24,726 nt of DNA. It comes from an uncultured virus (IMG/VR IMGVR_UViG_3300025168_000050). Lineage: Duplodnaviria; Heunggongvirae; Uroviricota; Caudoviricetes. How positions within the stretch are numbered: position 1 is the stretch's first letter; every line of letters begins with the position of its first letter. The stretch lies in IMG/VR virus record IMGVR_UViG_3300025168_000050; one strand, 5' to 3'. Shown here one piece after another: positions 3-24,200 of the stretch. The notes under the pieces were generated by a model, which searched no databases, was not told the origin of the DNA, and worked only from the letters and a program-made list of their open reading frames with translations. The translations under genes and the position numbers were made by a program.

Positions 3-296
3 TTACATGCTGATTCTGGAAGACCTATTGAGTCTTACAGGTTCACATTCCTTGACTTTGGTATGGCAGGTGGAGAATCAAACATCCAAGCTGTTCATAA
101 AAAAGACTCTAAGGATATGATGTGGCATACTGCTGGTTCTGTAGATCCATTTGGAAATACAGCTAAATCTGTTAACACTATGCGTTCTGACAACCTTGAT
201 GGTTATTCAGTACACATGTTAACTGAGTGTGGAATTATGATTAAAAATCCTATGGCATGTGGTGAGTTGATTTGTACTAAAGTAGCACAAAACTAG
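3..296 (+). CDS. Major capsid protein, C-terminal fragment (5'-truncated by window)
   Basis: The frame is open from base 3: LHADSGRPIESYRFTFLDFGMAGGESNIQ...DGYSVHMLTECGIMIKNPMACGEL. This resembles the crAss-like MCP C-terminus. The track's Met at 63 is internal. Ends in TAG. Confidence 0.85.
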   Translation, partial: LHADSGRPIESYRFTFLDFGMAGGESNIQAVHKKDSKDMMWHTAGSVDPFGNTAKSVNTMRSDNLDGYSVHMLTECGIMIKNPMACGELICTKVAQN

Positions 297-318
297 ATTA
301 ATAAATTAAACATTAAAC

Positions 319-1083
319 ATGAAAGGAAAAATAATTTTAAAGGCTTTAGAAAGACAATCTTGGTCAGGATTTAGCAGATTCCCTAAATGTAAGGATACGG
401 TAATAGCTTCCCTCGGAAGAGGGGGCTATGCTACCGGTCTTACTGAAGCGGATGAGAAAAAACTTGAAGCAGAATTGCAAATGAAGCCAGGTACTCTTGG
501 TAAATATTCCGAGTACTGGAGAGACTATACAGTAATTCTTAATGATAAGGATAAACCCTTAGTATTAGATAGACCACGAGATTTTATAGATTATAAAATT
601 TTAATGGCTAGTAACCGTGTAGCTAATTCAGTAAATGAATTATCTTCTTGGCCTAAAGCAGAATATGTAATATATGATGCTGAAGAAGACGCTAAAAAAG
701 ATAATTTAAAAATTAAAGAAAAGCGTAAAGCATATAAAGAATTTAATAGCATGACCTCAACTGAAATGAGAAATGTATTAAAATTAATGGGTAAGAAAGC
801 AGCTAATGCTTCAGATACATTAATTGAAAATACACTTGCAGATATTTTAGATAAGGACCCAGCAATATTTAATGAAACTATGGCTATGCCAGACTTTAAA
901 ACAAGAGTATTAATAGAAGATTTGGTAGCTATAAATGCATTACGTATTAGAGGCGGACATTATATGTTCGGCGATAGTGCTATAGGTCACGACCTAGAAG
1001 CAACGTGTATATATTTAAAAGAACCAAAAAACCAGGACATTGTATTATCACTTAAGTCAAAACTTAAAGCTAGTAAAAAATAA
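319..1083 (+). CDS. Conserved crAss-like protein of unknown function following the MCP ('gene 75'-type)
   Basis: 254 aa. Directly follows MCP. Motifs TGLTEADEKKLE, YWRDY, YVIYDAEE and YLKEPKNQDI resemble this family. Confidence 0.65.
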   Translation: MKGKIILKALERQSWSGFSRFPKCKDTVIASLGRGGYATGLTEADEKKLEAELQMKPGTLGKYSEYWRDYTVILNDKDKPLVLDRPRDFIDYKILMASNRVANSVNELSSWPKAEYVIYDAEEDAKKDNLKIKEKRKAYKEFNSMTSTEMRNVLKLMGKKAANASDTLIENTLADILDKDPAIFNETMAMPDFKTRVLIEDLVAINALRIRGGHYMFGDSAIGHDLEATCIYLKEPKNQDIVLSLKSKLKASKK

Positions 1084-1784
1084 TGACATTAGCGGAAATG
1101 CATATAGAATTCAAAGTGGGGTTAGATAAGACTGATAGTCTTAACTACCCCAATTTTGAACCTGAAGAAATCGACTTGTGGCTTAATAGGTCACAGGACC
1201 GTTTTGTAAAACAACGTTATTCACATGATCCGAAAAATGAAACTTTTGAGTTAACTCAGAAACGAACGGATGATTTGAGAAAAGTAGTAACAGAGGTAAC
1301 ATTAATTCCATCTGCAACGCAAACCCCAGTTAAACCTAATGGTATTCTTTTTGAATTACCAGATGGCACAACCGGTACGGACATTTATTGGTTCGCCATT
1401 AACGAAGAATGCGAAATTCGTTATGAAGACTGCAATGGCAGTTGGGTAGATGAAAGAAATGGTGTCTATGCTATTCAGCACGACGACTATAATAAACTTG
1501 TAGATGATCCTTTTAACCAGCCTACTAAGGATGTGGTTTTAAGATTGATGCATGGTCGATTTGCTGAGTTACTTACTGACGGGACTTTTACAATAAATCA
1601 GTACTTTTTGAGATATATAAGACAACCAATTAGATTAGATATATTAAATACACCAGGTGTTTCCTGCGAATTAGCCGAACACACGCATGCTGAAATATGT
1701 GCAGGCGCTGTAACAATGGCATTAGAGAATATAGCTAGTCCTAGATTTCAATCTCATATTATTTCAGAAATGACTCAAGAATAG
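1083..1784 (+). CDS. Tail ring / head-tail connector protein (crAss 'gene 74'-type)
   Basis: 233 aa. MTLAEMHIEFKVGLDK..EEIDLWLNRSQ..FELTQKRTDDLR..YFLRYIRQP..CELAEHTHAEI is the typical pattern of crAss ring proteins, and the position fits. Confidence 0.75.
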   Translation: MTLAEMHIEFKVGLDKTDSLNYPNFEPEEIDLWLNRSQDRFVKQRYSHDPKNETFELTQKRTDDLRKVVTEVTLIPSATQTPVKPNGILFELPDGTTGTDIYWFAINEECEIRYEDCNGSWVDERNGVYAIQHDDYNKLVDDPFNQPTKDVVLRLMHGRFAELLTDGTFTINQYFLRYIRQPIRLDILNTPGVSCELAEHTHAEICAGAVTMALENIASPRFQSHIISEMTQE

Positions 1785-2838: not shown

Positions 2839-3225
2839 ATGGCAAATATAATAGAAAAAAGAGCAATAAACGGTAACATTGAGTTAGCGTCAGTTGCTAT
2901 AGTATATGATGGATCAGCAGCTGGATCAGCATTCGTTTCGGATGCTATGATTCCAGTAGGTTCTACTATAACAGGTGTTTACTTAAATACTAGTACTGCA
3001 AACGGAGGTGTTTTAGCAGGTACCGGAACACTAAGAGTAGCAGTAGGTGGAGCTACTAATTGGGTTACTGGATCTATTGCTGCAGCTGCTTGTAAAGCAG
3101 GCCCTGCAGTACTATACTCAGGTGGTAACCAGTCTGGAGCAATCCATGTAACTGCAGGTGGTACAGTAACAGCGGTTAATGGCGTACACTACATCACAGT
3201 AGCGTACGTTAGAGGTAACGCGTAA
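2839..3225 (+). CDS. Putative capsid decoration / small beta-rich structural protein
   Basis: 128 aa, Gly/Ala/Thr-rich. IPVGSTITGVYL...LRVAVG...TAG...ITVAY pattern resembles jelly-roll decoration proteins. Strong A-rich initiation region. Confidence 0.5.
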   Translation: MANIIEKRAINGNIELASVAIVYDGSAAGSAFVSDAMIPVGSTITGVYLNTSTANGGVLAGTGTLRVAVGGATNWVTGSIAAAACKAGPAVLYSGGNQSGAIHVTAGGTVTAVNGVHYITVAYVRGNA

Positions 3226-3912: not shown

Positions 3913-4803
3913 ATGGCATGTAATAATTGTAACAATGGATGTGTTAATCCACAAACTTGCGCGTGCGACTGTACGTCTTGTGCTGAAGCAAACTCGTGTG
4001 ATATTCCTGTAGGAGATACAGGTCCTCAAGGGCCTGCTGGGCCTATGGGTCTTCCTGGAGTAAATGGTACAGACGGTGTAAACGGAACTGATGGTACAGA
4101 TGGTTGTACTCTTTTAGATGTTTATATTTCAGACGGTAGTGATGGGAATGTACAGGGTGACGTAATAGTTACTACTGGACCTACGCCTACGCCTTGTAAT
4201 CAAGTTATTAATGCCGGAAATATAATCCAATCAGTAATTAACCAGGGAGCTCTTATTCCATCAGGAATAATTGTAATGTGGTCTGGTCCTTTAGGTTCTA
4301 TTCCTCTTGGATGGAGTCTTTGTGATGGTACCGGAGGTACACCAAACCTTGCAGGAAAATTTATAGCTTCTTATGGAGCAGGGGATCCAAACTTTGGTGC
4401 AGTTTTAGCAGCAGGGGGTAGTCCTACTGTTACACTTTCTAAATCTAATATACCTGCTCATGTACATAATATAGGATCATATAGTGCTAATATAGCTATG
4501 TCTGGAGCTCATGCTCATAGATGGAGAGGATGGTATGCGCTCGATGCTTTACCAGATCAACAGGAATGTAAAAGCCGATTTAGAATTGGTAGTGACGCAT
4601 TAGAGTGGTGTACAGCAAGACCTAATGATGGAACAACTGATTGTACAGGTGATGCGGATCCTAATTGTGGGGCTCACACACATAATGTATCCTTAACAGG
4701 TAATTCAGGAGACGGACAAGCAGATAGTCTTAATTTTCCACAAGGTGTTCCTTTTAATATATTACCAGCGTTTGTAACCTTAGCATATATAATTAAAAAT
4801 TAA
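3913..4803 (+). CDS. Tail fibre protein: Cys-rich N-terminus, collagen-like segment, phage tail-collar domain with HxH tip motifs
   Basis: 296 aa. Ten Gly-X-Y triplets, then collar motif IPSGIIVMWSG..IPLGWSLCDGTGGTPNLAGKF, GGSPTVTLSKSNIPAHVH, AHAH, AHTH, and C-terminal NILPAFVTLAYIIK. Confidence 0.8.
   Translation: MACNNCNNGCVNPQTCACDCTSCAEANSCDIPVGDTGPQGPAGPMGLPGVNGTDGVNGTDGTDGCTLLDVYISDGSDGNVQGDVIVTTGPTPTPCNQVINAGNIIQSVINQGALIPSGIIVMWSGPLGSIPLGWSLCDGTGGTPNLAGKFIASYGAGDPNFGAVLAAGGSPTVTLSKSNIPAHVHNIGSYSANIAMSGAHAHRWRGWYALDALPDQQECKSRFRIGSDALEWCTARPNDGTTDCTGDADPNCGAHTHNVSLTGNSGDGQADSLNFPQGVPFNILPAFVTLAYIIKN
4012..4101 (+). repeat. Collagen-like (Gly-X-Y)10 coding repeat
   Basis: GDT GPQ GPA GPM GLP GVN GTD GVN GTD GTD. 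Confidence 0.9.
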
Positions 4804-5474: not shown

Positions 5475-8400
5475 ATGGCAACATCAGATAATTTTGAAAA
5501 ACAGTTTACAGGAAGAAGTGTCTTAGCAAACTTGACAGCTAATCCTCCTACTATGGGAAACGTTCCAGGAGCTCTTGGAGTTGCAGATGCTCCTTATAGT
5601 AGTTGTACAATAGTATCAGCTTCAGCTCAAACATTTGGAGTCGGAGCTTCAACAACTACCTTTGCTGATGGAGACATTTTATTTTATTCAGACGGTTACA
5701 GAATATATGATTCTACTGGAGTAGCAATGTTAGGTGCTGAAGCAACAATAGCAAATAATAAAACTGGTGGTGTAAGAGCTGCTCCTCAAGCTGTTACATT
5801 TATAAAAGTTCCTGATTATTTATCTTCTACTGTAACAGCAGGTCAGGATCCTGGCGCAGGTAATTCTACAGGTGCTATATTTTGGGCATTTTTTAATGGC
5901 ATGTATGGAGGTATAAAAGCAGGTGTTGTTGATATGAATGGTAATGGAGGAAAAGGAAAGTTTTTTAATCATCTAAATATAGGCCAATCAGGAGTAGCTC
6001 CAAATGATGGCCAGCTAAAAGATTCTATTTGTGATGGTCGTATGGTTTCTTTTTGTTGTCACATAGGCGGTAAAGAGGCTCCGGGATTAATTATTAAAAA
6101 ACATGACTGGAGTGGAGCTGCAGATAACAATAGTTATAGTGTATTTAGATTTTCTACAATTAGTAGTATGGGGGCTCCAAATTTATACGGAGGAACTTCC
6201 CTAACTGGAGACCCTGTAGAAACATCAATAGGAGCTACAACTGAAAGTAATGATGGAGCTAGAATGGGTATATTGAGTGTAACCAAATCAGATTTAGATC
6301 CTACTTCTTCTAGTTATAACTTATTTAAATTTGCTACTATTATACAAGACAAGGTAGGAAGTCCGGTTGCACAAAACGATTTCGCAACTGTACAAGTTTT
6401 TAACCTTAGTGCTATTACAGGCGTAATATCTAACGCTTCTCTAATTACTGCTCCACAAGCTGTAGTAGAACAATTAGATAGAGGTCCTATATCTTGGCCA
6501 CAAAGTGCAAGTACTGCAAGTAGATATTTTAGTATGCATAGTTGTTTTACTAGTGATAGTAATACAGATAGTTGTACACTTTATTTCGGTTGGTTTGATA
6601 GTACTTCTGTACCAGGAGGAGAATTAAAAATAAAATATATAACATTAAATGCTACTAACGCTATAACTGCTTCTTCTCCAGTTAATTATGGACATATAGA
6701 AGATGGGGCAGGAAATAATATATGGAATGGGATGAATGGCCCATCAAGAATAATTGCAGGTATTTGGCCAGACCCAGTATACAGTGATCGTATCCTATTT
6801 TTATGTCCAGAACAAATAGATAAATTTAATCTATCAGTTATAGCATCTGCTCCAGCTTGGACAACTAATTATCCAGAAGAATATGGAGACCCAAACAATC
6901 CTGAAGTCTACAATATAGGAGTAATAGATAATGCTACAAATCCTGCAACTGCACAATTTGGTTTTGAAGGGACACCTGTAGCAACTACTTTTATAAGATA
7001 TGGAGCTCCAGCAGAACATATATGTTCTAATAATATTATAGTACCAGAACTAGATGTAAAAAGATGTGATACTGTAGGTACATATACACTAGATTTAAAT
7101 AAAAACTTATGGAAAAATACTGTATTGCCTACTGGGGCTGAGATGAATTTAATTACTTCAGTAACAGGTACTGATTTTAGAGGACTATCTTTTAACATGT
7201 ATACTGCAATGTTGAGTATTTGGGATTCTCCTACACCATCAACATTAGCTTATCAAATATTTCATCCTGATTTAAATACAGTAACAAATCCTACAGCTGT
7301 TACAGCTAATGCAACATGGGAAAAATATAATGCATTTACAAACACAGTAGGACTTTCTAGTACAGTTACTGGTGCAGCTATTAGTGCAGCGCACCTTTGT
7401 AACATACATTGGTTTATGGGTAAAAAAACAGGAGCAGCCCAAGAATATGGTTTTGGTTTATTTGATCAAAGTGCTAATACAGTGAGTAATGTTGTTGGGA
7501 CCCACATAAATTTGGCTACTTTTATGGGTGGCGCTCTTACAGGGTTAGCCCCAGTTTCTATTGCTGGAGCTCAGGCTGGGAATCTAAACCCACAAGTTAG
7601 TCTAGTTGGTGGATACATGTATATTGCAATAGGTACAAGAATTGTTGCATATGATACAAATGCAAATACATATACATTATTAGCAGGAGTTGCTCCTGCA
7701 TCTATTAATGATATATGGTTAGAATTTGATGGAACAGGTATTAATGGATATACATTAAAAGGTACTACAGGAGTAGCTGGTGCTCAGATAGCTTATGATG
7801 TAAACCAAGGAACTGGAGCATTTACTGTTCTAGGTCCAGTCGTTACTAATCCCGGTGGATTTGCTTGGCCTGGAAAATCTTTAGCAACAGCTTATGATAG
7901 TTCATTTCGTAATTGGTTATCTTTCCCATTAAAAATATTTGGGACAGATCCAAATTTTATTGCTGTAAGTAATTACTGTGCCTCAACTCCTGTAATGGTC
8001 TGGAATTGGGCTAGTTTAAATATAGCCGGATGTTTTACTTGCTCTGTTCCTGCAAGTACTACATATCATACAAATGCTACTTCTTGTGAAATTTATGGAG
8101 CAGCATCTGCATCTTATCCAACTTGTAGAGACTGTATAGATGCTATAGATAATCAATGTTCTTCTTTTATACCGTGCTGTGCTATAGGAAATTCTGGATA
8201 TAATTCTGGGCCTATACATTTACCTGCAGTAACAACAGATGCGGTAACTCCTGGAGATGTTTATTCAGTTAGTGCTAACGGAAATACACCTGAATGTTCT
8301 GTAGCTTTTACTCCTCAACAGCAGATACTTATGTCTTTTAATAATGCTATAGATGGTGGTAATAATAATATTGTAGAAATACCTAGTCTTGTTGGTAGTG

Positions 8401-11400
8401 GGACAGTAATACCAACTCTTACAGCCGCTTCAGGTATAACCTTTTCTCAAGGTGATGTAAATGATATTGCTTTTGATAAACATAATAATCTTGCTATAAC
8501 TCAAACAAATAATAATATTTGGTTATCCGCAATACCTGGATATGAAAGTCCGCCAGTAACATTTAGCCCAGGTTTTATACAATGGACATGTTCTGACTAT
8601 GATTACACAGCTGCAGGACATCTTGTTGTTGCTTATAATTTTGCAGGTGATGCATATTTTGTAAAATATAATCAGGATTTAGTTAGTATAACTCAAGTTT
8701 CTAATTTTACAAACGTTGGTATTTCTGTAGGCCATGATATTTCAGTTGATTATAATACAGGAGATTATTGGTTAATAGGAGATAGTACTAATTCTGGAGG
8801 ACTAAATGATTTAATGACTATAGATGATGCTAGTGGAGCATCTAGTTTAGTAAGTGATTTATCAGTAATATGTTCTTATGCTGCTGGAGAGTTCACTTGT
8901 GGTGTAGAGTCAGTAAGAGCATCAGGGTCTACTACTTCTTTATATATAATTTCAGCTGTACCGTCTGGATCAGCTTATACATTAAAACTAAGAGAATTAA
9001 ATTCAACAGGTACAGCTCAAATAAGTTCAATAAGTTTATTAAACCCTATTACAAATACATTAAATTGGGATGAGCATCCAAATGGGATGGCTATAAATGA
9101 TCTATGTGAAAAATGGTTACAAGCACCGGATAATGTAAATCCTGCTATTGTACCATATGCTGATTGTGTAAGTTGTTTTACTAATGTTTCTACTGCAAGT
9201 TGTTGCTTTAGTTTAACTAATTGTGTTACAGGTGTAGTAACTTATAGCCAATCTAATCTAACTGCTTATATAGGTCAAGTAGTTCAAGATGCTTCAGGGA
9301 ATTGTCTTACAGTAGCTACTAGTCTTGCTTGTATTTCCCCGGCACCTTTTACTCCATCAGGACCACCTTTTGCAGATTGTATTTCTTGTTCAACACCTAC
9401 TGTTTGTTATAAATTAACAAAGTGTGGTGATCCATCTAATGTAATATATACAACAGGAATTTTATCTCCTTTTATACCAGGTCAGGTAGGAGGAGTTGTT
9501 CAGTTAACTGGTGAGCTTTTTTGTAGAGAAGTTGCTATAGATTCTACTTGTACATTACCACAAGTGGCTGTAACAATAGTTAATACACCTTCAGATTGTT
9601 CTGAATGTAACTTTTATATTGAATTAAGAGAGTGTAGCAGTGGTGCTATTATGTTAGTAGACTATGCAACTAGTTTAGCATTTGTTCCTTTTTTCGGAAC
9701 ACTAAATGCTCATACTGTTACATTAGGAGGAGTTGCTCAAGCAGGTTGCTGGAACGCTATAGGTGTTTTTGGCCCAAGCGCAACAGCATATCCTACAGGA
9801 GCTATTGTTACTACATCTACTAATTGTGTAGCATGTAGTAATCAAGGGAGTTGTTTCTTGTTAACTCACTGTTGTGGCCAAGGTTTTGTAACAAGTCAGA
9901 TTGTAGGAACAGGATCAGGTGTAGCAGGTACTGATATAGGACAAGTAATTGAAGCAGAAGTAACTGTAGCGGGTATTGTTTACCCAGGATGTTGGACAGT
10001 ATCACAACCAGGATCACTAAATTGTTCACTCGCACTTCCAAATATAGATGTAACAGTATTAAACTCAACAACTGTAGGTTCGCCTATAGGAACTAATTGT
10101 CTCGACTGTCCTACTAGTCCAGACCCATGTTCTTCTGACTGTGATTTATTAGTTACATGTGTTCCGAATGCGGGACCAGATATAAATATATCCCCAGCAG
10201 ATGCAGCACTTGTAGGAACTGATGCAGTTACAATACTAGGTTCTCCACTTTGTTATCAGATATGCCCAAGCGGAAATCCTTTACATGGTACCCAATTATT
10301 TTATGGGAACCAATTAGGAATAGATTATTCTAGCGGTGCTCCTACACCAAACCTTTCTGGAGGATCATTAATGAATGATTATGATAGTGTCGGAGCTGCT
10401 GATTATAGTACAATGGGAGGAGCAAGTTGTTGTGCTAATAAAGCAGCTACTATTGGTGCTACTGTATATAACGAAGGTGATATAATGTTTTATACAGACG
10501 GTCATCTAATATATGATTCATCACATAATTTAATGCTTGATAGTACAGGAGCTGCAGCAGGATTATTAGGAGGGGCCAATGGACAACCTGGTTTCGAAAA
10601 TAGAAAATTCGCACAACAACAAGTATTATACTTTCCTAAAACAGATGGGGGAATCACAAATGGATTATACCATCAATGGTATATTGTATGTAATACTGTT
10701 GATGATGGACCAATATATCGTTCTATTGTAGATATGACTCTCAATAGCGGTAAAGGACAAGTCTTAGTAGCAGGTAAGAATACAGTAGTTATAGCTAATG
10801 GAATTCCTACTGAGCACATGTGCGTAACAAATACAAGAACTAGCGCTACTGCTCAAGATTATTATTTTTATTATAGACATAAAATGAGTAGTAATGTTGA
10901 TTATGCTGATCTAGGTATACGAGGAATTAAAATTACAAATGGTGTTTGGGGAGCTCCTTTTGTAGCAGGAGACCTACCATCAAATTTCATGCTAGCAACT
11001 TATACACAAAAACAAAGATGCTCTGGAGAAATGTTAGTATCTCCTAATAACAAAGTACTTGCTATGTGTGGCTTATGGAGAAATGATGCGGCTAATGATG
11101 ATGGTGCAGGTTATGCATCTTTTTCTATAAACATGAGTGATGGAACACTAACAGGACCTGGAGACCCTGCAATAAGGGTAAATAATGGTTACAACGGAGG
11201 TGCAAATAATGGTATATTACAATATCTAGGAGCTATTGGTACAGGTATATTTGGAGGATCAGCACCTGATATGTGGGGTGAAATAGCAGGATCTATTGCT
11301 ATTACTCAAAATGGAGACTATGTATATTGGGCCATTGATTATACACCTGGATTCCTACAGTCTGCGGGAGTGCTAGTTAGAGATCCTGTTGGTAGTTGGA

Positions 11401-14400
11401 GAGATAGTCTTCCTTCTCCTAGCCAATCCAACTGGACAATGAGGGGTTATCCAGATGATACTACAGTTAATGGTTGGAGAACTTTTTCACCAGTAGAACC
11501 AGTAACTACAGGAGATATAGCTTTAATGCCTGATGGAAATATTGCTTTTGCTATGCAAAATGTAGTTGAGGCCGATCTATATAAAGGAAAAATAGGTACT
11601 GCTCCTCCACCTGATGGAAATTCAAGTGCATGTATTGGAGTAATTGTAAACTCGGAAAGTCCTAATCCTACAGATATAGGCAACCAAATAGATGGTGATA
11701 TGGGTGCTCCAGGTCCTAATATGCTTGCAAGTATTTATAATATAGGAGGAAGAGTTATGGGAACAAAATTCCCTACATATTTATGGGGACCTTGTGATTG
11801 CGACCCAAGCCTTATACAAGCAATTAATATAACAAACACTTATCCAAACTGTAGTGATGCAAATTGTGTTGGTGGAACTGGTGGACAAGATGGATTTGAA
11901 ATTACAGAATGTGAGTGTACAGGAGGAGGAGCTGTAACTAATTTATGTGATATATCAAATGTAGCTAATCAGCCTCCAGCAATGGTTGCAAATGGCAAGT
12001 CTTGGTCTCCTACATGTCAGAGCCCAGGACCTCAAAGAATAAATGCATTAGTAGCTGCAGTTCAAAATTTAGGAACACAAGCAGTTCCAGGTTTACCACA
12101 AACATTAACATTTACTTATAGTTTCTGTGCAGCAGGTACACAGGTCCCAGGAGAAAGTGGGGCGGGAGTTACTTTGACTTTTGAATCAGGACCGACAACT
12201 GCTAACCCAACAGGGAGATTAAATAGTTGTGCAGTTTATACTAAAACATACACTATAACCAATGTTCAATTTAAAGCTGAAATAGCTGGATCGTTTGCAA
12301 AAATGAAAGGTTTAATTGAAAGTAGATTTAATACAGCGTGTGGGTATGGTGCAGATCTTACAGTAAACTTTACAGATGTAGGAAACGAAAGTGCAGCAAC
12401 AGATATAACACCAGGTGTAGGTATAGCTAGTGCTCAAGTAAATGGTACTTATACAGACACTCAAGGAACTAGTAATATAGGAGATTTTAGATTTGGTTAT
12501 GGACCAACAAATACTTCTTGTTCTAGTGTAGGAAGTAAGTTAGGTGTTCTTGCTTATGCTTATAGCCCAGAACCAAACATGGTTCCAGGTAATGGAGGAG
12601 CCGGAGTAAAAAATACTAGTTGGGGTAGCTTTATGATGATTGATGCTAATGAGGATTGGAGAAAAGGTATGGGTGTTCCAGATCCAGTAGTTGCTGATAG
12701 TTTTGATTTACAATTAGTTGTAACTCACGAGCTTGGGCATGCATTTGGATTAGGCCATGATATATTTTGGGATCAAGCATTATGTACTACGTTAACAGGA
12801 GCTCCTTGTGGATGCCCTTGTTATCAGGGAGCTGGTAATTCTGTTTGTGGTAATGTAATATGTGGAACTGCTAATTCAGATGCTTTAATGGGACCGTGGG
12901 CTACAACTGCTCAATTTTCATCAGTATTTCCAACAGGTCTTACAGGATCAGATGGTATATATGAACAAAGAGCTATCTGTGGTATCTACGGAAACCCAAG
13001 TGCAAACTATGGATGTGAAGATGTATTCTGTTTAGCAGGATGTACTCCTTTAGTATATCATTCTACAGACTTTGTAAATTTAACTAATGTTGCACCGGGA
13101 ATAATGGACTGGGATGATGGTACTCCAGCCGGACTAAGATGTTGGGATGTACAATATATGAATCCATTACCAAGTGGATATGTAGACACAACACCTGTTG
13201 TCCCAGTTAGTTCAACACAAAATGCAGATTGTTTGGATTGTACAACTCAAGCTAATCAATGTTACACTCTTAATTTATGTGCATGTAATACAATACTAGG
13301 AGTACCTGCACAAGTTGTAACAACAACAGACTTAAGTGGATATTGCGCTGGAACAGTAGGATCAGGTACTATTGTAGAAATAGATTTATATCCAGGAGCA
13401 TGTTATGAAATAGATTGTACACCACAGCCATGCCCTCCTACTGGAGCAGTGGCTGTAGTAGTAACACAAGATCATTTAGATTGTGCAGATTGTTGTACAG
13501 CGAATCAATTATGTTATGAATTATGCCCATGTACTACTACTCCTACTTCTAATACTTGTTCTACTCTTACTGAGATAAATGTAGGAGTATCAACTTCAAA
13601 TGGATTTGCATTACAGTTTATTTCTGATGTTGCTAACTCTCCATTAAATAGTACAGATGTTACTACATTAAAATATGGGAATAATGTTCAGCCTGCAGGA
13701 CCAGATCCATGTGTAGCTCCGGGTGGAGGACACTATACATATTTCCCTGGTTTTATGGCTAATGGTGGAGTTTTTACTTGTTATACACCTGGCACGAGTA
13801 CTCCCCCTCCGGGAATAGCAGTAGGTTATACCAAATGGACTGATTTCTTAGCTGACCTTGTAGGACTTGGTGTTGCCGGAGTTTCAAATCCTGCGACACC
13901 GTATTTAGGCATTTCTTCATTAATAAAAACTCATTATGGGTACTCGAGCAATCCGCCTTTTGCTATTTGGAACAAGCGATGTGAATGTACAAGTGTTTCG
14001 GGATGTGTAACAGTAACAAATGATTTATCAGGTGTTATAGGATCAGTTGTAGATTTAACAGGAGCAACTCCTACAGGTTTAGATGATTCAACATGTTATC
14101 TACCAGGAGTGTGTGGACCATGTTCTTCAGTTCCAGGGGCTGCATGTGTACCGGTAGGGACTGTAACAATAGATAATGTGTATACTGATTGTGTAAAATG
14201 TGATAATGGTAATCCATTAGATTGTTATCAACTTATAAACTGTAATGACCCTAATGATATAATAGACAATGTTTGTGCAAATATAGATATAGATAATGCG
14301 TATATAGCTGGAGAAGTTGTAAATGTAAATGGTACTACAGAATGTTATTATATTGATACAAGTCAAAACTGTGATCCAAATACCTGTATACCAGTTACAG

Positions 14401-16478
14401 TAGATAATACTTTTGCATCTTGTCAGCTTTGTACTGGTGCTGGATTGAACTGGGTATGTACTAGTCCATGTGATTGTACACAAGTAGCCGGACCGGGATG
14501 GGCAACTCAAGCACTATGTTTAGCTAACACTAATTCTGTAGGCCAACCTTGTTGTCCTTCAACTTCTTTTGATTGCGATCAGGGATGTAATTGTGTACCA
14601 GCTCCAGGATCAACGGGAGCTTTCCCAGATTTAGTTACATGCCAGACTGCTTTACTTAATCCAAACGGAGGAGCAAACTGTTGTAATGGAATAACTCCAT
14701 CTTTTGATTGTGGTCAATATACACCAGGCTCAACAGTATTTACGTGTCAGGACCCTGGAAATGGTACTGGACTATTTGCAAGTCTGTCTGATTGTAACGC
14801 AGCAATAGCATCTAATACTCAGCCATGCTATGCAGAAACATGGAATTGTCTAATTGATTTAACTACAGGAGTAAGTACTTGTATTGATCCTTTAGATGGG
14901 ACCGGAGTATTTAATAGTGGTAACGGAGGTTTAGCAGCATGTGCGGCTTGTAATGGTTGTCCTCAATCTCCACAGTGTACGGGAACTTTAGATACATGGG
15001 ATTGTGATCCTACTTTAGGATGTGTTTTAGTATTAACCGGAACAGGCCAATATACTTCATTAGCAGACTGTGCTCTAAATTGTTCTAGCTATGATCCTGA
15101 CGGAGGAGAGTATGAAGGAGATTGTATTAATTGCTTTGAAGATCCTGATATGCAAATCTTAATGGAAAAAGTAGCTGATATGTGTGATGATTGTAATCCA
15201 CCATTCGGCTTAGAAAAAAATGAAGTAATATGTGATGACTGTTTTGGTAACTCAAACCTTTATGTATTCTTTGATATGTCTTCAACATTCACAGGAGGAC
15301 CATTTGATAAACTGACAGCAATATCTCAGTTTAAAGCTAATGTAGTTATTCCAGCATTTAATCAATTAAAAGCAGAATATCCTCAGTATGGAGGACACTT
15401 ATATATAATACCTGGACCTGTATGGTCTGTTAGTTGTAATAACTATAATGGTTCAGGAACAACTATAGCAGGAAGCTCAACAGCATTTGAAGACTGGTTA
15501 AACTGGGCTTCATATCCGATGACAGGTAATGCAGGAGCTAATGGGTCTCTACCAAATCCACTTACTGGACAGACATTACCAAATGCACTAAGAGTTCCAT
15601 TACTAGGTACAATAATTGATGGTGTAGGCGGTGCACCACTTTCTTGTTGGACTTACACTGCAGCAATGGCTCCGTTAATAGAAGACATACTAATCCTTCC
15701 AGGTAGTTATGCAACTGATGGATTTACCCAACTTAATCCTTGGGGAGATGCTGCAGGCTTTGAAGGAATAAGTGATCCTTTCCATGAGTTTGAAGGAGGG
15801 GATAGAACTGCAATCTCAATGATTATATGTGATGAAGCTACACAGGGTTACTATGCTTCAAATAATAATGGAGTTACTGGAGCTAATCCTTTTATTAACC
15901 CTATGGGTACGTGCGGTAATCCATTAGATAATGGAGTGCCTGCTACAGATTACAATGATTTTGGATTAAATAATGCAGGAAACTTGACTGCAACTTGGAA
16001 ATTACATTATAATAATTACATGGATATATATAGATATGGTATAGATCTTAACGGAGCTGTAAATGTGGGAGCAGCTGCATTACCTGAAGCTACAACTAGA
16101 GTAATGTTATATTTAGGATCAGATAAAATTCCGGGTCCAGGTCTCTTTGATTCTTATAGAGATATGTTCTACCACATATACCAAGCTATTGGAGGTAAGA
16201 TGGGAACTGTAAATAATACAGGCCATATAAGTTGTGCAGACTATGTACCTTTACCAGCGGTGTATGGATTCCAAATCTTTCTTGTAACAGACCCGTCAAT
16301 CCCTAATCAGTATATGGGAGCAGCGGGAGGAGGAGATCCTACTCATACAACAGGGTATAAAGGAGGATCATTAAGTAATTATGGTATGGACTTTTATGTA
16401 CCGGATGTTCCTATTGATCAGATGGATTCCAATAGGTTGTATGAATTATGGAAAGAATATTTATCGAATTGTGTCTAA
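5475..16478 (+). CDS. Giant Cys-rich multidomain protein (putative fibre/adhesin) with beta-propellers, matrixin-like M10 metalloprotease and vWA-like C-terminal domain
   Basis: Uninterrupted 3667-aa ORF among tail genes. HELGHAFGLGH at 12726-12758 with Met-turn DALMGP. Two GD(I)xFYxDG propeller starts. About 11 repeats ending in xCxxC. YVFFDMSS motif near the C-terminus. No signal peptide evident. Confidence 0.85.
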   Translation: MATSDNFEKQFTGRSVLANLTANPPTMGNVPGALGVADAPYSSCTIVSASAQTFGVGASTTTFADGDILFYSDGYRIYDSTGVAMLGAEATIANNKTGGVRAAPQAVTFIKVPDYLSSTVTAGQDPGAGNSTGAIFWAFFNGMYGGIKAGVVDMNGNGGKGKFFNHLNIGQSGVAPNDGQLKDSICDGRMVSFCCHIGGKEAPGLIIKKHDWSGAADNNSYSVFRFSTISSMGAPNLYGGTSLTGDPVETSIGATTESNDGARMGILSVTKSDLDPTSSSYNLFKFATIIQDKVGSPVAQNDFATVQVFNLSAITGVISNASLITAPQAVVEQLDRGPISWPQSASTASRYFSMHSCFTSDSNTDSCTLYFGWFDSTSVPGGELKIKYITLNATNAITASSPVNYGHIEDGAGNNIWNGMNGPSRIIAGIWPDPVYSDRILFLCPEQIDKFNLSVIASAPAWTTNYPEEYGDPNNPEVYNIGVIDNATNPATAQFGFEGTPVATTFIRYGAPAEHICSNNIIVPELDVKRCDTVGTYTLDLNKNLWKNTVLPTGAEMNLITSVTGTDFRGLSFNMYTAMLSIWDSPTPSTLAYQIFHPDLNTVTNPTAVTANATWEKYNAFTNTVGLSSTVTGAAISAAHLCNIHWFMGKKTGAAQEYGFGLFDQSANTVSNVVGTHINLATFMGGALTGLAPVSIAGAQAGNLNPQVSLVGGYMYIAIGTRIVAYDTNANTYTLLAGVAPASINDIWLEFDGTGINGYTLKGTTGVAGAQIAYDVNQGTGAFTVLGPVVTNPGGFAWPGKSLATAYDSSFRNWLSFPLKIFGTDPNFIAVSNYCASTPVMVWNWASLNIAGCFTCSVPASTTYHTNATSCEIYGAASASYPTCRDCIDAIDNQCSSFIPCCAIGNSGYNSGPIHLPAVTTDAVTPGDVYSVSANGNTPECSVAFTPQQQILMSFNNAIDGGNNNIVEIPSLVGSGTVIPTLTAASGITFSQGDVNDIAFDKHNNLAITQTNNNIWLSAIPGYESPPVTFSPGFIQWTCSDYDYTAAGHLVVAYNFAGDAYFVKYNQDLVSITQVSNFTNVGISVGHDISVDYNTGDYWLIGDSTNSGGLNDLMTIDDASGASSLVSDLSVICSYAAGEFTCGVESVRASGSTTSLYIISAVPSGSAYTLKLRELNSTGTAQISSISLLNPITNTLNWDEHPNGMAINDLCEKWLQAPDNVNPAIVPYADCVSCFTNVSTASCCFSLTNCVTGVVTYSQSNLTAYIGQVVQDASGNCLTVATSLACISPAPFTPSGPPFADCISCSTPTVCYKLTKCGDPSNVIYTTGILSPFIPGQVGGVVQLTGELFCREVAIDSTCTLPQVAVTIVNTPSDCSECNFYIELRECSSGAIMLVDYATSLAFVPFFGTLNAHTVTLGGVAQAGCWNAIGVFGPSATAYPTGAIVTTSTNCVACSNQGSCFLLTHCCGQGFVTSQIVGTGSGVAGTDIGQVIEAEVTVAGIVYPGCWTVSQPGSLNCSLALPNIDVTVLNSTTVGSPIGTNCLDCPTSPDPCSSDCDLLVTCVPNAGPDINISPADAALVGTDAVTILGSPLCYQICPSGNPLHGTQLFYGNQLGIDYSSGAPTPNLSGGSLMNDYDSVGAADYSTMGGASCCANKAATIGATVYNEGDIMFYTDGHLIYDSSHNLMLDSTGAAAGLLGGANGQPGFENRKFAQQQVLYFPKTDGGITNGLYHQWYIVCNTVDDGPIYRSIVDMTLNSGKGQVLVAGKNTVVIANGIPTEHMCVTNTRTSATAQDYYFYYRHKMSSNVDYADLGIRGIKITNGVWGAPFVAGDLPSNFMLATYTQKQRCSGEMLVSPNNKVLAMCGLWRNDAANDDGAGYASFSINMSDGTLTGPGDPAIRVNNGYNGGANNGILQYLGAIGTGIFGGSAPDMWGEIAGSIAITQNGDYVYWAIDYTPGFLQSAGVLVRDPVGSWRDSLPSPSQSNWTMRGYPDDTTVNGWRTFSPVEPVTTGDIALMPDGNIAFAMQNVVEADLYKGKIGTAPPPDGNSSACIGVIVNSESPNPTDIGNQIDGDMGAPGPNMLASIYNIGGRVMGTKFPTYLWGPCDCDPSLIQAINITNTYPNCSDANCVGGTGGQDGFEITECECTGGGAVTNLCDISNVANQPPAMVANGKSWSPTCQSPGPQRINALVAAVQNLGTQAVPGLPQTLTFTYSFCAAGTQVPGESGAGVTLTFESGPTTANPTGRLNSCAVYTKTYTITNVQFKAEIAGSFAKMKGLIESRFNTACGYGADLTVNFTDVGNESAATDITPGVGIASAQVNGTYTDTQGTSNIGDFRFGYGPTNTSCSSVGSKLGVLAYAYSPEPNMVPGNGGAGVKNTSWGSFMMIDANEDWRKGMGVPDPVVADSFDLQLVVTHELGHAFGLGHDIFWDQALCTTLTGAPCGCPCYQGAGNSVCGNVICGTANSDALMGPWATTAQFSSVFPTGLTGSDGIYEQRAICGIYGNPSANYGCEDVFCLAGCTPLVYHSTDFVNLTNVAPGIMDWDDGTPAGLRCWDVQYMNPLPSGYVDTTPVVPVSSTQNADCLDCTTQANQCYTLNLCACNTILGVPAQVVTTTDLSGYCAGTVGSGTIVEIDLYPGACYEIDCTPQPCPPTGAVAVVVTQDHLDCADCCTANQLCYELCPCTTTPTSNTCSTLTEINVGVSTSNGFALQFISDVANSPLNSTDVTTLKYGNNVQPAGPDPCVAPGGGHYTYFPGFMANGGVFTCYTPGTSTPPPGIAVGYTKWTDFLADLVGLGVAGVSNPATPYLGISSLIKTHYGYSSNPPFAIWNKRCECTSVSGCVTVTNDLSGVIGSVVDLTGATPTGLDDSTCYLPGVCGPCSSVPGAACVPVGTVTIDNVYTDCVKCDNGNPLDCYQLINCNDPNDIIDNVCANIDIDNAYIAGEVVNVNGTTECYYIDTSQNCDPNTCIPVTVDNTFASCQLCTGAGLNWVCTSPCDCTQVAGPGWATQALCLANTNSVGQPCCPSTSFDCDQGCNCVPAPGSTGAFPDLVTCQTALLNPNGGANCCNGITPSFDCGQYTPGSTVFTCQDPGNGTGLFASLSDCNAAIASNTQPCYAETWNCLIDLTTGVSTCIDPLDGTGVFNSGNGGLAACAACNGCPQSPQCTGTLDTWDCDPTLGCVLVLTGTGQYTSLADCALNCSSYDPDGGEYEGDCINCFEDPDMQILMEKVADMCDDCNPPFGLEKNEVICDDCFGNSNLYVFFDMSSTFTGGPFDKLTAISQFKANVVIPAFNQLKAEYPQYGGHLYIIPGPVWSVSCNNYNGSGTTIAGSSTAFEDWLNWASYPMTGNAGANGSLPNPLTGQTLPNALRVPLLGTIIDGVGGAPLSCWTYTAAMAPLIEDILILPGSYATDGFTQLNPWGDAAGFEGISDPFHEFEGGDRTAISMIICDEATQGYYASNNNGVTGANPFINPMGTCGNPLDNGVPATDYNDFGLNNAGNLTATWKLHYNNYMDIYRYGIDLNGAVNVGAAALPEATTRVMLYLGSDKIPGPGLFDSYRDMFYHIYQAIGGKMGTVNNTGHISCADYVPLPAVYGFQIFLVTDPSIPNQYMGAAGGGDPTHTTGYKGGSLSNYGMDFYVPDVPIDQMDSNRLYELWKEYLSNCV
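8000..14432 (+). repeat. About 11 dispersed Cys-rich protein repeats (type A) in the giant ORF
   Basis: Consensus C[YF]xLxxC...T.xL...G.VV.l...CY.v...C...VtV...[YF]xDCxxC. Repeat ends: YPTCRDC, YADCVSC, FADCISC, PSDCSEC, STNCVAC, GTNCLDC, YPNCSDANC, NADCLDC, HLDCADC, YTDCVKC, FASCQLC. Visible at protein level only; boundaries approximate. Confidence 0.75.
14448..15083 (+). repeat. Five tandem short Cys repeats (type B) in the giant ORF
   Basis: NWVC..C..GPGWATQALC, SFDC..C..GSTGAFPDLVTC, SFDC..CQDPGNGTGLFASLSDC, TWNC..CIDPLDGTGVF..LAAC, TWDC..C..TGTGQYTSLADCALNC. Confidence 0.75.
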
Positions 16479-19336: not shown

Positions 19337-20062
19337 ATGGCAATAAATTTAAATAAGATAGTTTATGATATAATTAATATCGCATACGGAGGAGAAAGTT
19401 CTGACGATGCAGATGTTAGTTTTAGACAATGTGCGTATTGGGTCATGCAGGAAAGATCGATGCTACTCACACAAATGATGAGTCGGAAAGTTCGAGTACC
19501 AGCCGCCTGTACAGAATATCTAAACTGTGTATATTTAGAGCCAGTAGATGCTTCTGAATGCTGTGAAGTAGATTTAGGTGTACACGTACTTAAGTCTATT
19601 AGTCCGATTCCCGGTACAGTACAGAGAAATAATAGAGATAGTATATTAGCTGTTGAGTCTTTAGACGGTGCAAGAGCATTTTCAGAGACTACTGATACAA
19701 GACGCAAGTGGAACAAATACAATAAATACACAAGTTCAAATGCGAGATGGTATATTAAAAACAGTTACTTATATGTGAGTTGCGATATGTTGATTGAAGC
19801 AGTCAAGGTAACAGGAGTATTCGAAGATCCTACTGAAGTATGGAAGATGAATTACTGTACAAGCGCAACGAATCCAATTATTTCAGCCTGTGAGTATGAC
19901 TGGGAATTTCCTTTCCCTATTTCATTATCTATGGCAAATTCAGTAACTAATCAAATTTTACAAAAAAGAATTAATATAATATTATCAACACCGGGAGATG
20001 AAACAAACAATGCAAATGGAGACAGGATGTCAGGACCTACTCAACAACAAGCCAGCAACTAG
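19337..20062 (+). CDS. Tail ring structural protein (crAss-like)
   Basis: 241 aa. LNKIVYDII..SDD..S.RQ..YWV.QERSML..NKYT..WYIKNSYLYV..VKVTGVFEDP..FPIS resembles the crAss ring protein found upstream of the IHF-like gene. Confidence 0.7.
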   Translation: MAINLNKIVYDIINIAYGGESSDDADVSFRQCAYWVMQERSMLLTQMMSRKVRVPAACTEYLNCVYLEPVDASECCEVDLGVHVLKSISPIPGTVQRNNRDSILAVESLDGARAFSETTDTRRKWNKYNKYTSSNARWYIKNSYLYVSCDMLIEAVKVTGVFEDPTEVWKMNYCTSATNPIISACEYDWEFPFPISLSMANSVTNQILQKRINIILSTPGDETNNANGDRMSGPTQQQASN

Positions 20063-20483: not shown

Positions 20484-21239
20484 ATGATTTACAAATTTAT
20501 ATCAATAAATGAAATAATAGAAGGAGTATACAGAGACAATGCTATCTATGAGGAGTTAGATATTTGGGATGTAATTGAGTGGGGAGGAGAAGCTTTAGAG
20601 CTTATTGGAGCAGGCTTGCAATATGAAGAGCTTATTGCTGAAATTTGTGTTAAAGAACACCGAGCGCCTTTGCCTTGTAACTTACATTTATCTGATTCTG
20701 TTTCATATAAAGGACACCCATTACATCAATGTACTGGTACCTTCGGTGCAATCTCTACATCTCCTACAAGTACAGATACAAATATTATTGATGGCAAACA
20801 AGTAGATAAAGATAACTTTCCGCAGATGGGAGGGAGCCTAGGTGGAGGAGGAGATTGTTATTATATGAATGATAATTTTATTGTTACATCATTTAAATCC
20901 GGATGTATCTTATTAGCATTTAGAGGAATCAAAGTAGACCATGATGGGTATCCAATGATACCTGATAATGTTAGTTACAAGAGAGCAGTTAAGTCTTATA
21001 TAACTATGATGTTAGATAGGATTAATTGGAGAAAAGGTTCATCTCCAGAAGCTCATTATAGAGATAGCCAAAGAGATTGGGAGTGGTATGTTAAGCAAGC
21101 TAGAGGAGCAGCTAATATGCCTAACTTGGATATGATGGATAATATTAAAACTCAGTGGGTTAAGCTAAAACCTTCTCAGACAGCTCATCAAACTTTTTAT
21201 ACAGATTTAGGTAATTCAGAAAGAAGATTAATCGGATAA
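20484..21239 (+). CDS. Tail tubular / ring protein (P22 gp4-like position) preceding the muzzle
   Basis: 251 aa. YKFISINEII..DVIEWGGEALELIG..LPCNL..TSFKSGCILLAF..DHDGYPMIPD..WEWYVKQAR is typical of the crAss tail tubular family. Confidence 0.75.
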   Translation: MIYKFISINEIIEGVYRDNAIYEELDIWDVIEWGGEALELIGAGLQYEELIAEICVKEHRAPLPCNLHLSDSVSYKGHPLHQCTGTFGAISTSPTSTDTNIIDGKQVDKDNFPQMGGSLGGGGDCYYMNDNFIVTSFKSGCILLAFRGIKVDHDGYPMIPDNVSYKRAVKSYITMMLDRINWRKGSSPEAHYRDSQRDWEWYVKQARGAANMPNLDMMDNIKTQWVKLKPSQTAHQTFYTDLGNSERRLIG

Positions 21240-24200
21240 TGGCAGAACAAGGACAGCAACCCCCTATTAGTTTAAATACCTTTATAAAAGGTATGAATAA
21301 AGATATATCAAAGTATGCTCTTTCACCAGATCAATACTATGATGGAAAAAATGTTAGAGTAGTTGCGAGCTCAGCGAAAGAAGGAGCCGCTTTAGTTAAC
21401 ATAGAAGGTAATGAGTATGCTTTTAAAATACCTTGTAGCCCAGCTGTATTTAGTTTTACTTTAGACCCAGCTGCACTTTTAGCAGGGGTGCCTTGGACAT
21501 CTACTATTACTATTGTAGTACAAATGGCCACAGGAGCAGTAGACACATGGACTTTAACTATTAGTGGTACAGGAGGTAATCCTATAAATACATTAGCAGA
21601 AAAATTAAAAGATGCAGCAAGTGCTCCTTGGTTTTTGAATGGAGTATTAACTACACCTAGCAATGTAAGAGATAGAACACCTGGTTTTTTGTGGAGTTTT
21701 GATGAGTCTTCTAAACGAATTGTTATTTGGGGTAAACCTAATTTAATAAACCCTGATTTAAATATACCATTAACAAATTCAACGGGTGTATTTGGAACCC
21801 CTGAAGTAAATCAAGTAACTAGTATTTCTATGACTGGTGGGTATACATTTACAGATTCATTAGCTTTTGCTCAATGTGATCTTGATGTAATAGGATACAC
21901 AACACTAAGAGAGAATATATATCTATTCACTACAAACTGGGATCCAGGAAACGGAGATGTTACTGAAGCAGCTCTTGCGGCTGATGGAGATAATGGGCAG
22001 ATCTGGAGACTAAGTATAGATACAGCTATACAAAATGTTAATGGCTATCAAGTATATTTAGAATGTATATATGCTGCAAAGTCATGTATAAATTTTACTA
22101 AACAGCACCCAATAGAAGCTATTGGTAGATATGAGAAAAAAGATATTCAGGGTATATATTGGACAGATAATTTTAACCCTCCCAGAAAACTAAATGTAGC
22201 TAACCCAGATGTAATGGCAACACCATGTGCCTTTTTAGACCTAGCTCCTAAAACAGGATTACAAATACCTACATTAAAAGTAATAACTATTGGAGGATCT
22301 TTAGAGTCAGGAGTATATCAATTAGCATTTAGATATAAGAACTCTGAAGGACTAGTAACTGATTGGTCACCCCTTTCTAACTTAGTACCTATCTATGCAA
22401 GTGATGATCAAAATCCATTTTGTACAATAGAAGGAAGCGGTATAGATCCGGATACAAATCTAGGAAAAGTTACATCCAAAGCAATAACATGGACACTAAC
22501 TGGTCTAGATACAACATATGAACTTTTAGAACTAGCAGCTGTTTATAGAAAAGATGCTGTCCCTGCAAATGCATCTGTATTTTCATTTGCTCAATTAACA
22601 AATGGATTACCTACATTAGATATAACTTTCTCAGGATCAGAGGATAGGATACCTATAACAATGGAAGATTTTTTAACTGGGATTGGAACAACCTTTGAAA
22701 GAGTAAAAACATTAGAATCAAAAGATAATAAATTATTTTTTGGTAATATAACTAATACTAGTTTTAATGTTGAGTATGATGCAAGAGCATATCGATTTAA
22801 ATCTAATAGAGAAGCATTGTTAGATTCTAAGTCTGATGCGCCTGTGCAGTTAGACGGTGCTAACTTAAATAATCCTGTTGCCCCATTTATTCCTATACTA
22901 GAAGTTCCAGATGAGCATGATTGTATAAATCGTTATAATGATGAAAATCCTTCAACGAATGCAGACTGGACTACTAATGACCAATATATCTTCCAAAGTA
23001 ATGGAAATGTGTTAGGAGGTTCAGGAATAAATATTACTTATAAATTTATAAGAGAGCAACATTTTCAAGATGAGATAATTGAGTATGGAGACTGGGTAGC
23101 AGCTGATGCAGCTGGTAATTGGCTTTATAATAATATAGGAAGTTGTACATCATATAATCCAGATCCTGTGTCAGGATGCTTTGCTACAGGAGGAGCACGT
23201 GTAAGTACTATAGATAATTTAGGTATAGCAGTTCAAAATTATCCTATGAATAATACATATGATAATTATAAATCTCCTTATAAGTGGAGTTTATATGGAG
23301 CATATGCTAGAGGAGAAACTTATAGATTTGGTATTGTTTTTTACAATAATAAAGGGCAGGCAAGCTTTGTAAATTGGGTTGGAGATATTAAATTTCCATA
23401 CTCATATAGTACTGGTGCGGGTACTCCTTTTGGATTTTTTAAAATCGAAGATTGGCGTGGAGGTGTAGGTTCTCCTGAGTTTGATTATTTTGATACACAA
23501 AATATGCCTTGGGTAGGTCAGATGTATACTAATAATATTGGAATTGAATTTTCAGTTAATTTAGATCCTTTAACTTCAGGAATAGATGTAGCAGAACTAG
23601 GTATCACAGGTTACTCTATTGTAAGATCAGAAAGAACAATTAATGATATGTCTCGTTTTGGTACAGGATATATAAGAACTGTTGATAGATTACGAATGGT
23701 TCAGGATGAATGGGATGGTATAGCAGGAGCAGTTAGTAATTATTGGGGAGTTGGTAATAGCGGATCAGTATTAATTCCATCAGTTGTTCAGTGGGAGAGT
23801 ACATGTGGAGGCGCAGGATTAGCAAATAGAGGAGGTGCTGTTGATGATTTATGTTGTGATTTTTATCCTTACTGGGGAGGTGTGAACCAATCTGGTACAC
23901 GAGTATGTCAAACACAGAAAAAAGAAGTATTATTATACGGGCCATTAGGTTGGCACAATAGTGATCCATCTAGCCCTCTTAATTATGCTGGAGGATTAAG
24001 TGTAGATACTCCACTTGCTGATGGTGATTATATTAAAACAGAGTCTATCTTTTTACCTATGGTTAATCCTAATATGGGATTAAACTCAACTATGAATGGA
24101 TCTGGAGCAGTTTGGAGAATTTATGCAAATCATTATTATAAGTATTATTATCCTGTAACACAGACCGGGGGAATTCCTGGATCTGGTGCAAACGCTGCAT

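Follow-up and report, generated by a model that had tools for sequence, protein, structure and literature searches.

In the "evolved" distal tail (Dit) and Tal proteins of siphophages of lactic acid bacteria, a structural domain has received carbohydrate-binding modules as inserts (PMC10688798, PMC7533335), and the muzzle protein of crAss001 varies in length through insertions into its domains (PMC10172136). Here we describe the product of a giant open reading frame (ORF), P0001, which lies in a 24,726-nucleotide stretch of DNA (the window) from an uncultured virus of the Caudoviricetes, IMG/VR record IMGVR_UViG_3300025168_000050. The window corresponds to positions 47188-71913 of the 86,270-base record, which is rated 99% complete. 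Our analyses support the nesting of whole domains inside a repeated cysteine-rich module of this protein.

As described in the two sources, evolved Dit and Tal are the nearest phage precedent for domain insertion into adhesion proteins. They resemble P0001 in that binding modules occupy loops of a structural tail domain and the inserts vary between phages, but they differ from it in phage type, host domain and inserts, and no enzyme insert is described for them. Moreover, Dit and Tal each offer one host domain, whereas P0001 contains a tandem array of small cysteine-rich hosts, and no sequence relation was found between them. The fibres of crAss001 (gp22 and its partners) and its muzzle share virus order and tail gene block with P0001 (PMC10172136). 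That fibre set, compared here by description and not by sequence, consists of several smaller proteins, and the cysteine-rich module is not described in the consulted part of that source.

The nearest design analogue is the arrays of YWTD propellers and EGF modules in the LDL-receptor family (LDLR, LRP4, LRP6, LRP2; 1ijq, 3v65, 3s8v, 8jx8), in which small cysteine-rich modules and propellers alternate along an extended extracellular chain. There the propeller stands between EGF modules, whereas in P0001 it appears to lie inside a module, and that module is a beta unit of 62-86 amino acids (aa) with a C-terminal helix, not an EGF domain. P0001 has no Pfam match to Ldl_recept_b or EGF, and the likeness is one of fold and design only. 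In the literature searched, which left subscription journals and supplements outside its scope, no description of the module or of this architecture was found.

A repeated cysteine-rich module and its interruptions

The giant ORF (5475..16478, + strand) is a single open frame of 3,667 aa with 158 cysteines (4.3%), concentrated between aa 850 and 3250. The motif C[YFW]x[LIVM]xxC occurs six times (mean 0.14 and maximum 2 in 1,000 shuffles) and [DNST]CxxC occurs 11 times (mean 2.1, maximum 8 in 1,000 shuffles). A self-BLAST of the whole protein returned the trivial self match only, and a windowed version few pairs. Library scans of P0001 yielded one metallopeptidase from Pfam and nothing from PHROGs or NCBIfam.

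An initial profile of 12 intact module copies was searched against 1.84 billion proteins and, at E<=1e-3, retrieved 174 representatives; their length is mostly 500-1,000 aa, with the module repeated in tandem 3-5 times, but a few giants are among them. A 66-position profile was built from 370 full-length module copies, with P0001 and its closest relative excluded and the intact copies of five more distant orthologues included (the external profile). Its consensus reads CYKLTNC...TTDLSAYVGQVV...GCWTV...C...VTVTV..Y.DC..C, and no model of the module was found in Pfam, NCBIfam or PHROGs. Against this profile, the six intact copies of P0001, which are 62-86 aa long, gave E-values of 5e-7 to 2e-18; linkers between modules span 0-10 residues. 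A Pfam scan of 69 mid-size family members found none with a model covering the module, while 14 had matches to a BNR/sortilin-type propeller, PA14, VWA or thioredoxin, most of them below the Pfam cut-offs. One family member of 1,201 aa is encoded on another phage contig downstream of portal, major head and ring-3/4-like genes; a viral-contig scan with a further member, P0004, gave no match.

Among database proteins, ten orthologues of P0001 were found (3,635-3,839 aa, including P0135, P0145 and P0007), and IMG/VR loci contained others as open frames of up to 3,843 aa. Fourteen full-length orthologue sequences were aligned for the order of modules and inserts. Module order and the inserts termed A, B and C below were collinear in all 14, and these three inserts were also detected in the more distant P0135.

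An AlphaFold2 (AF2) model of aa 2590-2990, computed from a 15-row alignment, had a mean predicted local distance difference test score (pLDDT) of 79.9 and a predicted template modelling score (pTM) of 0.42. An alignment with 56 mid-size members, which stretched the intact repeats over insert D, was dropped in its favour. In each of modules U7, U8 and U9 the model shows two strands (1 and 2), then a short helical segment or turn, three further strands (3-5) and a helix beginning at CxxC. The model had no Foldseek match in PDB at E<=1e-3; the highest Z anywhere in VIA was 3.8, from rows resembling small beta-barrels that covered no more than residues 325-396, and BFVD returned an unnamed homologue (A0A516LFR9, E 2.8e-30). 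A new fold for the module or for insert D cannot be concluded from this lack of fold matches.

A first-pass annotation of the window, made from the letters alone, had described about 11 repeats and proposed that four of them (splits a-d, here modules U0, U5, U6 and U8) are each cut in two by an unrelated domain (inserts A-D; Table 1). The external profile found the uninterrupted copies where that annotation had placed them, all six with significant scores, and the boundaries of all four inserts agreed as well. About ten modules were recovered; the eleventh copy, aa 853-887, is doubtful, with an hhalign probability of 3.9% and pLDDT below 50.

For split b, the external profile matched aa 1559-1599 at positions 4-44 and aa 2109-2127 at positions 47-64, i.e., two complementary halves 509 residues apart; in splits c and d the halves are likewise complementary, covering positions 1-7 and 7-66. 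When the halves were joined by script and scored against the external profile, with 500 shuffles each, split b gave 20.8 bits over positions 4-65 and split d 16.6-19.9 bits, scores that no shuffle reached (0/500 in both). Split c gave 7.0 bits (equalled by 9/500 shuffles), or 16.1 bits with the boundary set at aa 2523. By hhalign, orthologue profiles of 13-14 rows were aligned to the family profile with probabilities of 96.7% (b; E 4.5e-10), 96.5% (c; E 7.5e-10) and 97.6% (d; E 3.5e-12), against at most 1.1% for three control segments. Joining the halves of b, c and d thus restored a full-length match to the external profile.

The left parts of c and d comprise the first strand only and add just 3 bits, so that the profile alone cannot prove that they belong to the module. 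In both, the invariant C7 lies within the left 7-mer in 14/14 orthologues, and every insert junction is flanked on both sides by extra invariant cysteines. In the model, strand 1 of U8 occupies residues 90-96, before insert D, and the remainder of the module residues 256-323; read across insert D, its strands follow the order found in U7 and U9. In the distant orthologue P0135, U8 is uninterrupted: its CYTITKC runs straight on, the extra junction cysteines are absent, and the same unusual cysteine-rich loop is retained later in the module. Finally, five mid-size family members carry mutually homologous inserts of 83-92 aa at profile position 45-47, the same site as in split b, and their joined halves gave 37-42 bits from position 1-2 to 66.

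Split a is a weaker case. Its joined halves scored 2.6 bits, which 61/500 shuffles equalled, and hhalign gave 8.1% over the last eight columns only (YADCVSC). On the other side, its six cysteines keep the canonical order and spacing class and are invariant in 15 orthologues. Strands were predicted at model residues 52-56, 74-76, 85-89 and 96-101 in the left part of U0, and a strand at 380-384 and a helix at 387-393, at CxxC, in the right part. The predicted order, b1-b4, insert, b5-helix, is that of an intact module. That U0 is a module interrupted by insert A is therefore plausible as modelled, on weaker evidence than for b, c and d.

The cysteines bear on contact between the halves. Across the 370 external modules, C7, C38, C63 and C66 are conserved at 98-100%, while C1 and C47 are both present in 178, both absent in 166 and present singly in only 26 (phi 0.86); a bonded pair would be expected to show such near-constant co-occurrence. 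In P0001, U3 and U6 lack both and all other copies have both. In U6, position C1 lies to the left and C47 to the right of the 374-aa protease insert, and all eight orthologues with CYxLTEC have C47, whereas the six without C1 also lack C47. This covariation across the insert in 14/14 orthologues argues that the halves touch. A possible but doubtful alternative to two disulfides per module is that the four invariant cysteines bind zinc, and that only the C1-C47 pair and the junction cysteines form disulfides. There are exactly four invariant cysteines, two of them forming a CxxC at the start of a helix, and assembly takes place in the reducing cytoplasm, both of which would fit zinc. Against it, C1 and C47 behave like a disulfide pair, the fold searches recovered no zinc-binding fold, which is weak evidence, and the crAss001 tail is reportedly stabilised by disulfides (PMC10172136).

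The inserts and their variation

The AF2 model of aa 845-1245, which covers insert A, had a mean pLDDT of 78.1 and a pTM of 0.78, with the first 45 residues below 50. Insert A had 290 PDB matches by Foldseek at E<=1e-3, and by VIA 824 of 971 chains stood at Z>=8, with Z values of 12.6-15.9. NHL propellers scored 14.6-14.7 (4zlr_A, 14.7, root-mean-square deviation (rmsd) 3.5, 196 aligned), LRP6 (3s8v_A) 14.3 and LDLR (1ijq_A) 13.6 (rmsd 4.3, 231 aligned); the designed Pizza6 scored 12.6-12.7; the matches span model residues of about 103..368, i.e., the borders of the insert. No Pfam repeat family (NHL, YWTD or Kelch) matched insert A at E<=0.1. The two ends of a propeller lie side by side, which suits insertion into a loop.

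For insert B, an Atlas feature search gave a weak propeller-type lead (scores 0.92-0.94; in the cluster at rank 4, 22% of members carry PD40). Its first approximately 170 residues (10293-10772, about aa 1607-1766) are homologous to aa 9-155 of the N-terminal domain (5499-5939; hhalign 99.0%, E 6.6e-18), and P0135 shows the same pair; it represents an old internal duplication. No internal repeats were detected by hhalign in insert A, insert B or the N- and C-terminal domains.

Insert C carries the zinc motif HELGHAFGLGHD at 12726-12761 (aa 2418-2429), in which H, E, H, G, H and D of HExxHxxGxxHD are invariant in 14/14 orthologues. Metzincins are defined by a Met-turn downstream of the zinc motif. 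In insert C the sequence ALMGP (12882-12896, aa 2470-2474), approximately 40 residues past the third histidine, is likewise invariant in 14/14, and P0001 reached 26.3 bits with PF00413 (cut-off 24). Insert C shares HExxHxxGxxH with matrixin-type metzincins (PF00413; Tannerella forsythia karilysin, MMP-20), and its ALMGP, which resembles an ALMxP-like turn, may correspond to their Met-turn; it differs from them in an aspartate after the third histidine, in the approximately 40 cysteine-rich residues that precede the putative Met-turn, and in being nested inside another module. The intervening stretch (12762-12881, aa 2430-2469) contains six cysteines and represents an unusual metzincin spacing. 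The protease would act on a host surface protein or in self-processing.

Insert D, modelled as an alpha/beta domain, had no structural match by Foldseek or VIA. At least four sequence types of this insert occur among the orthologues; two copies are present in P0032, in L009 and in L008, where they belong to different types, and P0135 has none. Insert D of P0001 is 72% identical to that of P0007, against 42% overall and 36-44% in the flanks (U6R, U8R), and 52% identical to that of P0152, against 71% overall and 76-92% in the flanks. The switch in identity is confined to about aa 2700-2820, a pattern that indicates exchange of the insert between lineages. Sequence comparison therefore supports the view that at least one socket, that of insert D, acts as an exchangeable cassette, and makes insert D a candidate specificity-determining part. 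More speculatively, and with some doubt on our side, the module may be a plug-in scaffold with two sockets, one after strand 1 and one between strands 4 and 5. Recombination of the U8 cassette through its CYELCPC and CxC...VTVTNDLS flanks would then retarget tails, insert D would set host range, and the U8 socket could accept foreign domains.

The first-pass annotation had called insert A a propeller and insert C a metalloprotease. Structural matches over the whole of A (Z up to 15.9), and for C the Pfam threshold passed in P0001 together with the invariant zinc motif, bear out both assignments. It had named insert B a propeller as well, a reading to which the weak Atlas lead would point. Its further proposal, that modules are swapped into loops, holds for insert D, which was found absent, single, doubled and exchanged, but not for A, B and C, which are fixed in all 14 orthologues.

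The proposed tail appendage and alternative readings

Uncultured marine crAss-like phages are abundant, and we know of no account of how they attach to their hosts. We consider it moderately probable that P0001 is a tail appendage of a marine crAss-like podovirus, i.e., a chain of cysteine-rich modules with side-mounted domains and one variable cassette. Its core would be a chain of about ten small beta modules, each with five strands and a short C-terminal helix beginning at CxxC, with four invariant cysteines and two more that are optional and co-vary. Sites a and b, between strands 4 and 5, would hold the beta-propeller and the 508-aa domain, and sites c and d, just after strand 1, the metzincin-like protease and the 149-aa alpha/beta domain. 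If each insert has its two ends next to one another, the module chain would continue past it, so that the working domains would be mounted at the side. The protease, the propeller and insert B would be fixed equipment and insert D the variable cassette. A location in the virion is suggested by the neighbouring crAss ring, fibre and muzzle genes, and the chain may be stalk-like in shape, stapled by disulfides and engaged in host binding.

Several aspects of this arrangement matter beyond the locus: a family of compact modules, not represented in Pfam, NCBIfam or PHROGs, accepts whole domains in two of its loops; at one of these loops, nature provides empty, singly and doubly occupied and exchanged states; and a conserved predicted protease is mounted on a putative fibre. 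If location and packing are as proposed, the protein would provide a model, open to test, of how cassette exchange alters host range, and a small scaffold on which domains could be displayed.

A number of observations weigh against this architecture. Split a fails the profile tests, and the packing of the halves as one module would follow from profiles and covariation, both drawn from sequence. The 14 orthologues are related, and the six that lack C1 and C47 in U6 comprise five P0001 relatives and, apart from these, P0032, i.e., two lineages; the 14/14 covariation therefore represents approximately two events and not fourteen. None of the inserts A, B and C is missing from any of the 14 full-length orthologues. 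The pTM of 0.42 for U7-U8-U9 means that a rigid stalk is not indicated by the model. For the protease, none of seven other giants reached the M10 cut-off (three at 16.9-20.0 bits, four without a row), and the best rows against PDB profiles, karilysin and MMP-20, were not significant (E 0.55-1.5). The virion location is drawn from gene position, with no cultured homologue: by tblastn against cultured phages, aa 1197-3260, the N-terminal domain, the C-terminal domain and family member P0004 had no match. No PHROG family, and hence no tail-fibre family, matched P0001 at E<=1e-3.

On the last two points bears an alternative that we regard as unlikely, in which the nesting is real and the protein is not an external fibre but ejected or internal cargo, or a polyprotein cut by its own metzincin into smaller tail components. 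The indirect placement in the virion, the absence of PHROG fibre-family matches and the conserved protease in mid-chain would all suit it, and very large virion proteins are present in crassviruses (PMC10172136). According to the same source, crAss001 has its ring, tail-hub, fibre and muzzle genes together in a single block, with the cargo genes after the muzzle gene, whereas the giant gene lies upstream of the muzzle gene, beside a fibre gene. Some mid-size family members have BNR/sortilin-type propeller, PA14 and VWA matches, and a few of these attain the Pfam cut-offs. A propeller, cysteine-rich modules and a variable cassette are moreover typical of surface-exposed proteins.

End-to-end fusion of fibre genes without true nesting, the partial repeats being decayed leftovers, could account for the homology between the start of insert B (its first 150 aa) and the protein's own N-terminus, as a fusion of similar genes would leave, and for the failure of split a, but is highly improbable and largely refuted by the complementary halves of b, c and d, the canonical cysteines retained in 14 orthologues, the covariation of C1 and C47 across an insert, the intact U8 of P0135 and the five unrelated mid-size proteins with an insert at the same site.

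The tail gene neighbourhood and further features

Genes for crAss tail ring proteins 1, 2 and 3/4 and for the muzzle, i.e., the tail module of the Crassvirales, adjoin the giant gene (Table 1). All four matches are far above the Pfam cut-off of 27 bits that applies to each of these families, in agreement with the earlier description of the genome as crAss-like. Matches to PHROG fibre families are limited to the neighbouring gene at 3913-4803, with none on the giant protein.

Table 1. Features of the giant gene and its neighbours (positions in the window)
Feature	Position	Strand	Evidence or remark
Tail ring protein 3/4 (crAss)	1083..1784	+	PF25710, E 1.6e-21, 77.0 bits
Tail fibre protein with collagen-like stretch	3913..4803	+	16 PHROG tail families, best E 1.8e-16
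N-terminal domain, aa 1-850	5475..8024	+	aa 9-155 homologous to start of insert B
Doubtful remnant module, aa 853-887 (CxxC...C...CxxC)	8031..8135	+	Cysteines invariant in 15 orthologues
Module U0, left part, aa 895-945, canonical Cys 1, 7, 38	8157..8309	+	Cysteine framework
Insert A, 265 aa, predicted beta-propeller	8310..9104	+	AF2 model, Foldseek, VIA
Module U0, right part, aa 1211-1234, canonical Cys 47, 63, 66	9105..9176	+	6.0 bits, profile positions 56-66
Intact modules U1-U4	9204..10109	+	aa 1244-1305, 1311-1378, 1379-1454, 1460-1545
Module U5, left part	10140..10265	+	Profile positions 4-44
Insert B, 508 aa	10266..11789	+	phmmer, hhalign; C-terminal part less conserved
Module U5, right part	11790..11867	+	Profile positions 47-65
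Module U6, left part, first strand, FEITECEC (CYKLTEC in 8 orthologues)	11895..11918	+	
Insert C, 374 aa, metzincin-like zinc protease	11919..13040	+	Pfam Peptidase_M10 and motifs
Module U6, right part	13041..13241	+	External profile, C1/C47 covariation
Intact module U7, aa 2596-2673	13260..13493	+	E 8.7e-13, external profile
Module U8, left part, CYELCPC	13512..13532	+	Predicted strand at model residues 90-96
Insert D, 149 aa, alpha/beta (predicted), variable	13533..13979	+	AF2 model, orthologue comparison
Module U8, right part	13980..14201	+	E 1.1e-4 alone, profile positions 7-66
Intact module U9, aa 2917-2986	14223..14432	+	E 4.6e-13, external profile
Second cysteine-rich repeat, about five copies of approximately 40 aa, by eye	14451..15083	+	[WF]xC...GxGx[FY]xxLxxC...C
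C-terminal domain, aa 3206-3667	15090..16478	+	Conservation extends to every full-length orthologue
crAss tail ring protein 2	19337..20062	+	PF25702, E 6.9e-36, 124.3 bits
crAss tail ring protein 1	20484..21239	+	PF24228, E 4.7e-57, 193.9 bits
Crassvirus muzzle protein	21239..24724, continues beyond window	+	PF25731, E 6e-93, 313.3 bits

Within the giant protein, the second cysteine-rich repeat region (aa 2993-3203) is poorly conserved among the orthologues and was recognised by phmmer in the three closest ones only; a profile of this repeat also matched P0121, an otherwise unrelated family member. The N-terminal domain had no match in PDB, Pfam or cultured phages, and the C-terminal domain none in PDB, Atlas or cultured phages. 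A PDB sequence search with aa 1-942, aa 2986-3667 or a whole-protein profile gave no match, and aa 2106-2595 gave weak rows only (antibody heavy chains, best E 0.0037; MMP-16, E 0.19). A VWA identity considered for the C-terminal domain was rejected: Pfam gave no match, and a DMSST stretch seen by eye is not evidence. A near-length search with this domain returned seven proteins only, of 262-447 aa and 45-75% identical, with no names or Pfam domains, which are probably pieces of giants.

The only nucleotide matches to cultured phages covered 3% of a 6.5-kb query at 70-72% identity; the 30 records comprised 29 from Flavobacterium phages and one uncultured record, and may be read as a weak pointer to a Bacteroidota host. 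Flavobacterium phage FpV4 (KT876724.1), a cultured distant relative, has several mid-size genes in the equivalent tail region and no single giant. One of these genes is annotated as a peptidase (L012 11658-12530); its product did not resemble insert C (BLASTP E 0.17).

Between the giant gene and that of ring protein 2 lies a 381-aa gene (18187-19332, + strand) with an I-HmuI NUMOD-like endonuclease domain at its N-terminus (PF22083, E 1.8e-7) and a metallophosphatase or "DNA repair exonuclease" body (phrog_704, E 2.3e-59). Standing within the tail block, this nuclease gene looks like a mobile intruder. The ORFs at 1818-2804 (328 aa) and 2839-3225 (128 aa) are without a significant family match and occupy the place of the crAss001 tail hub genes; in NCBIfam the larger matched the metzincin Mep72 weakly, over the C-terminal part of the latter (E 0.0024, 16.5 bits, cut-off 645), a match that is probably meaningless. 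A second giant ORF, of 3,688 aa, lies outside the window (G000:C1:23-11089, + strand), where it follows the muzzle gene and two ORFs of approximately 1,100 aa; this location suggests a virion RNA polymerase or a cargo protein.

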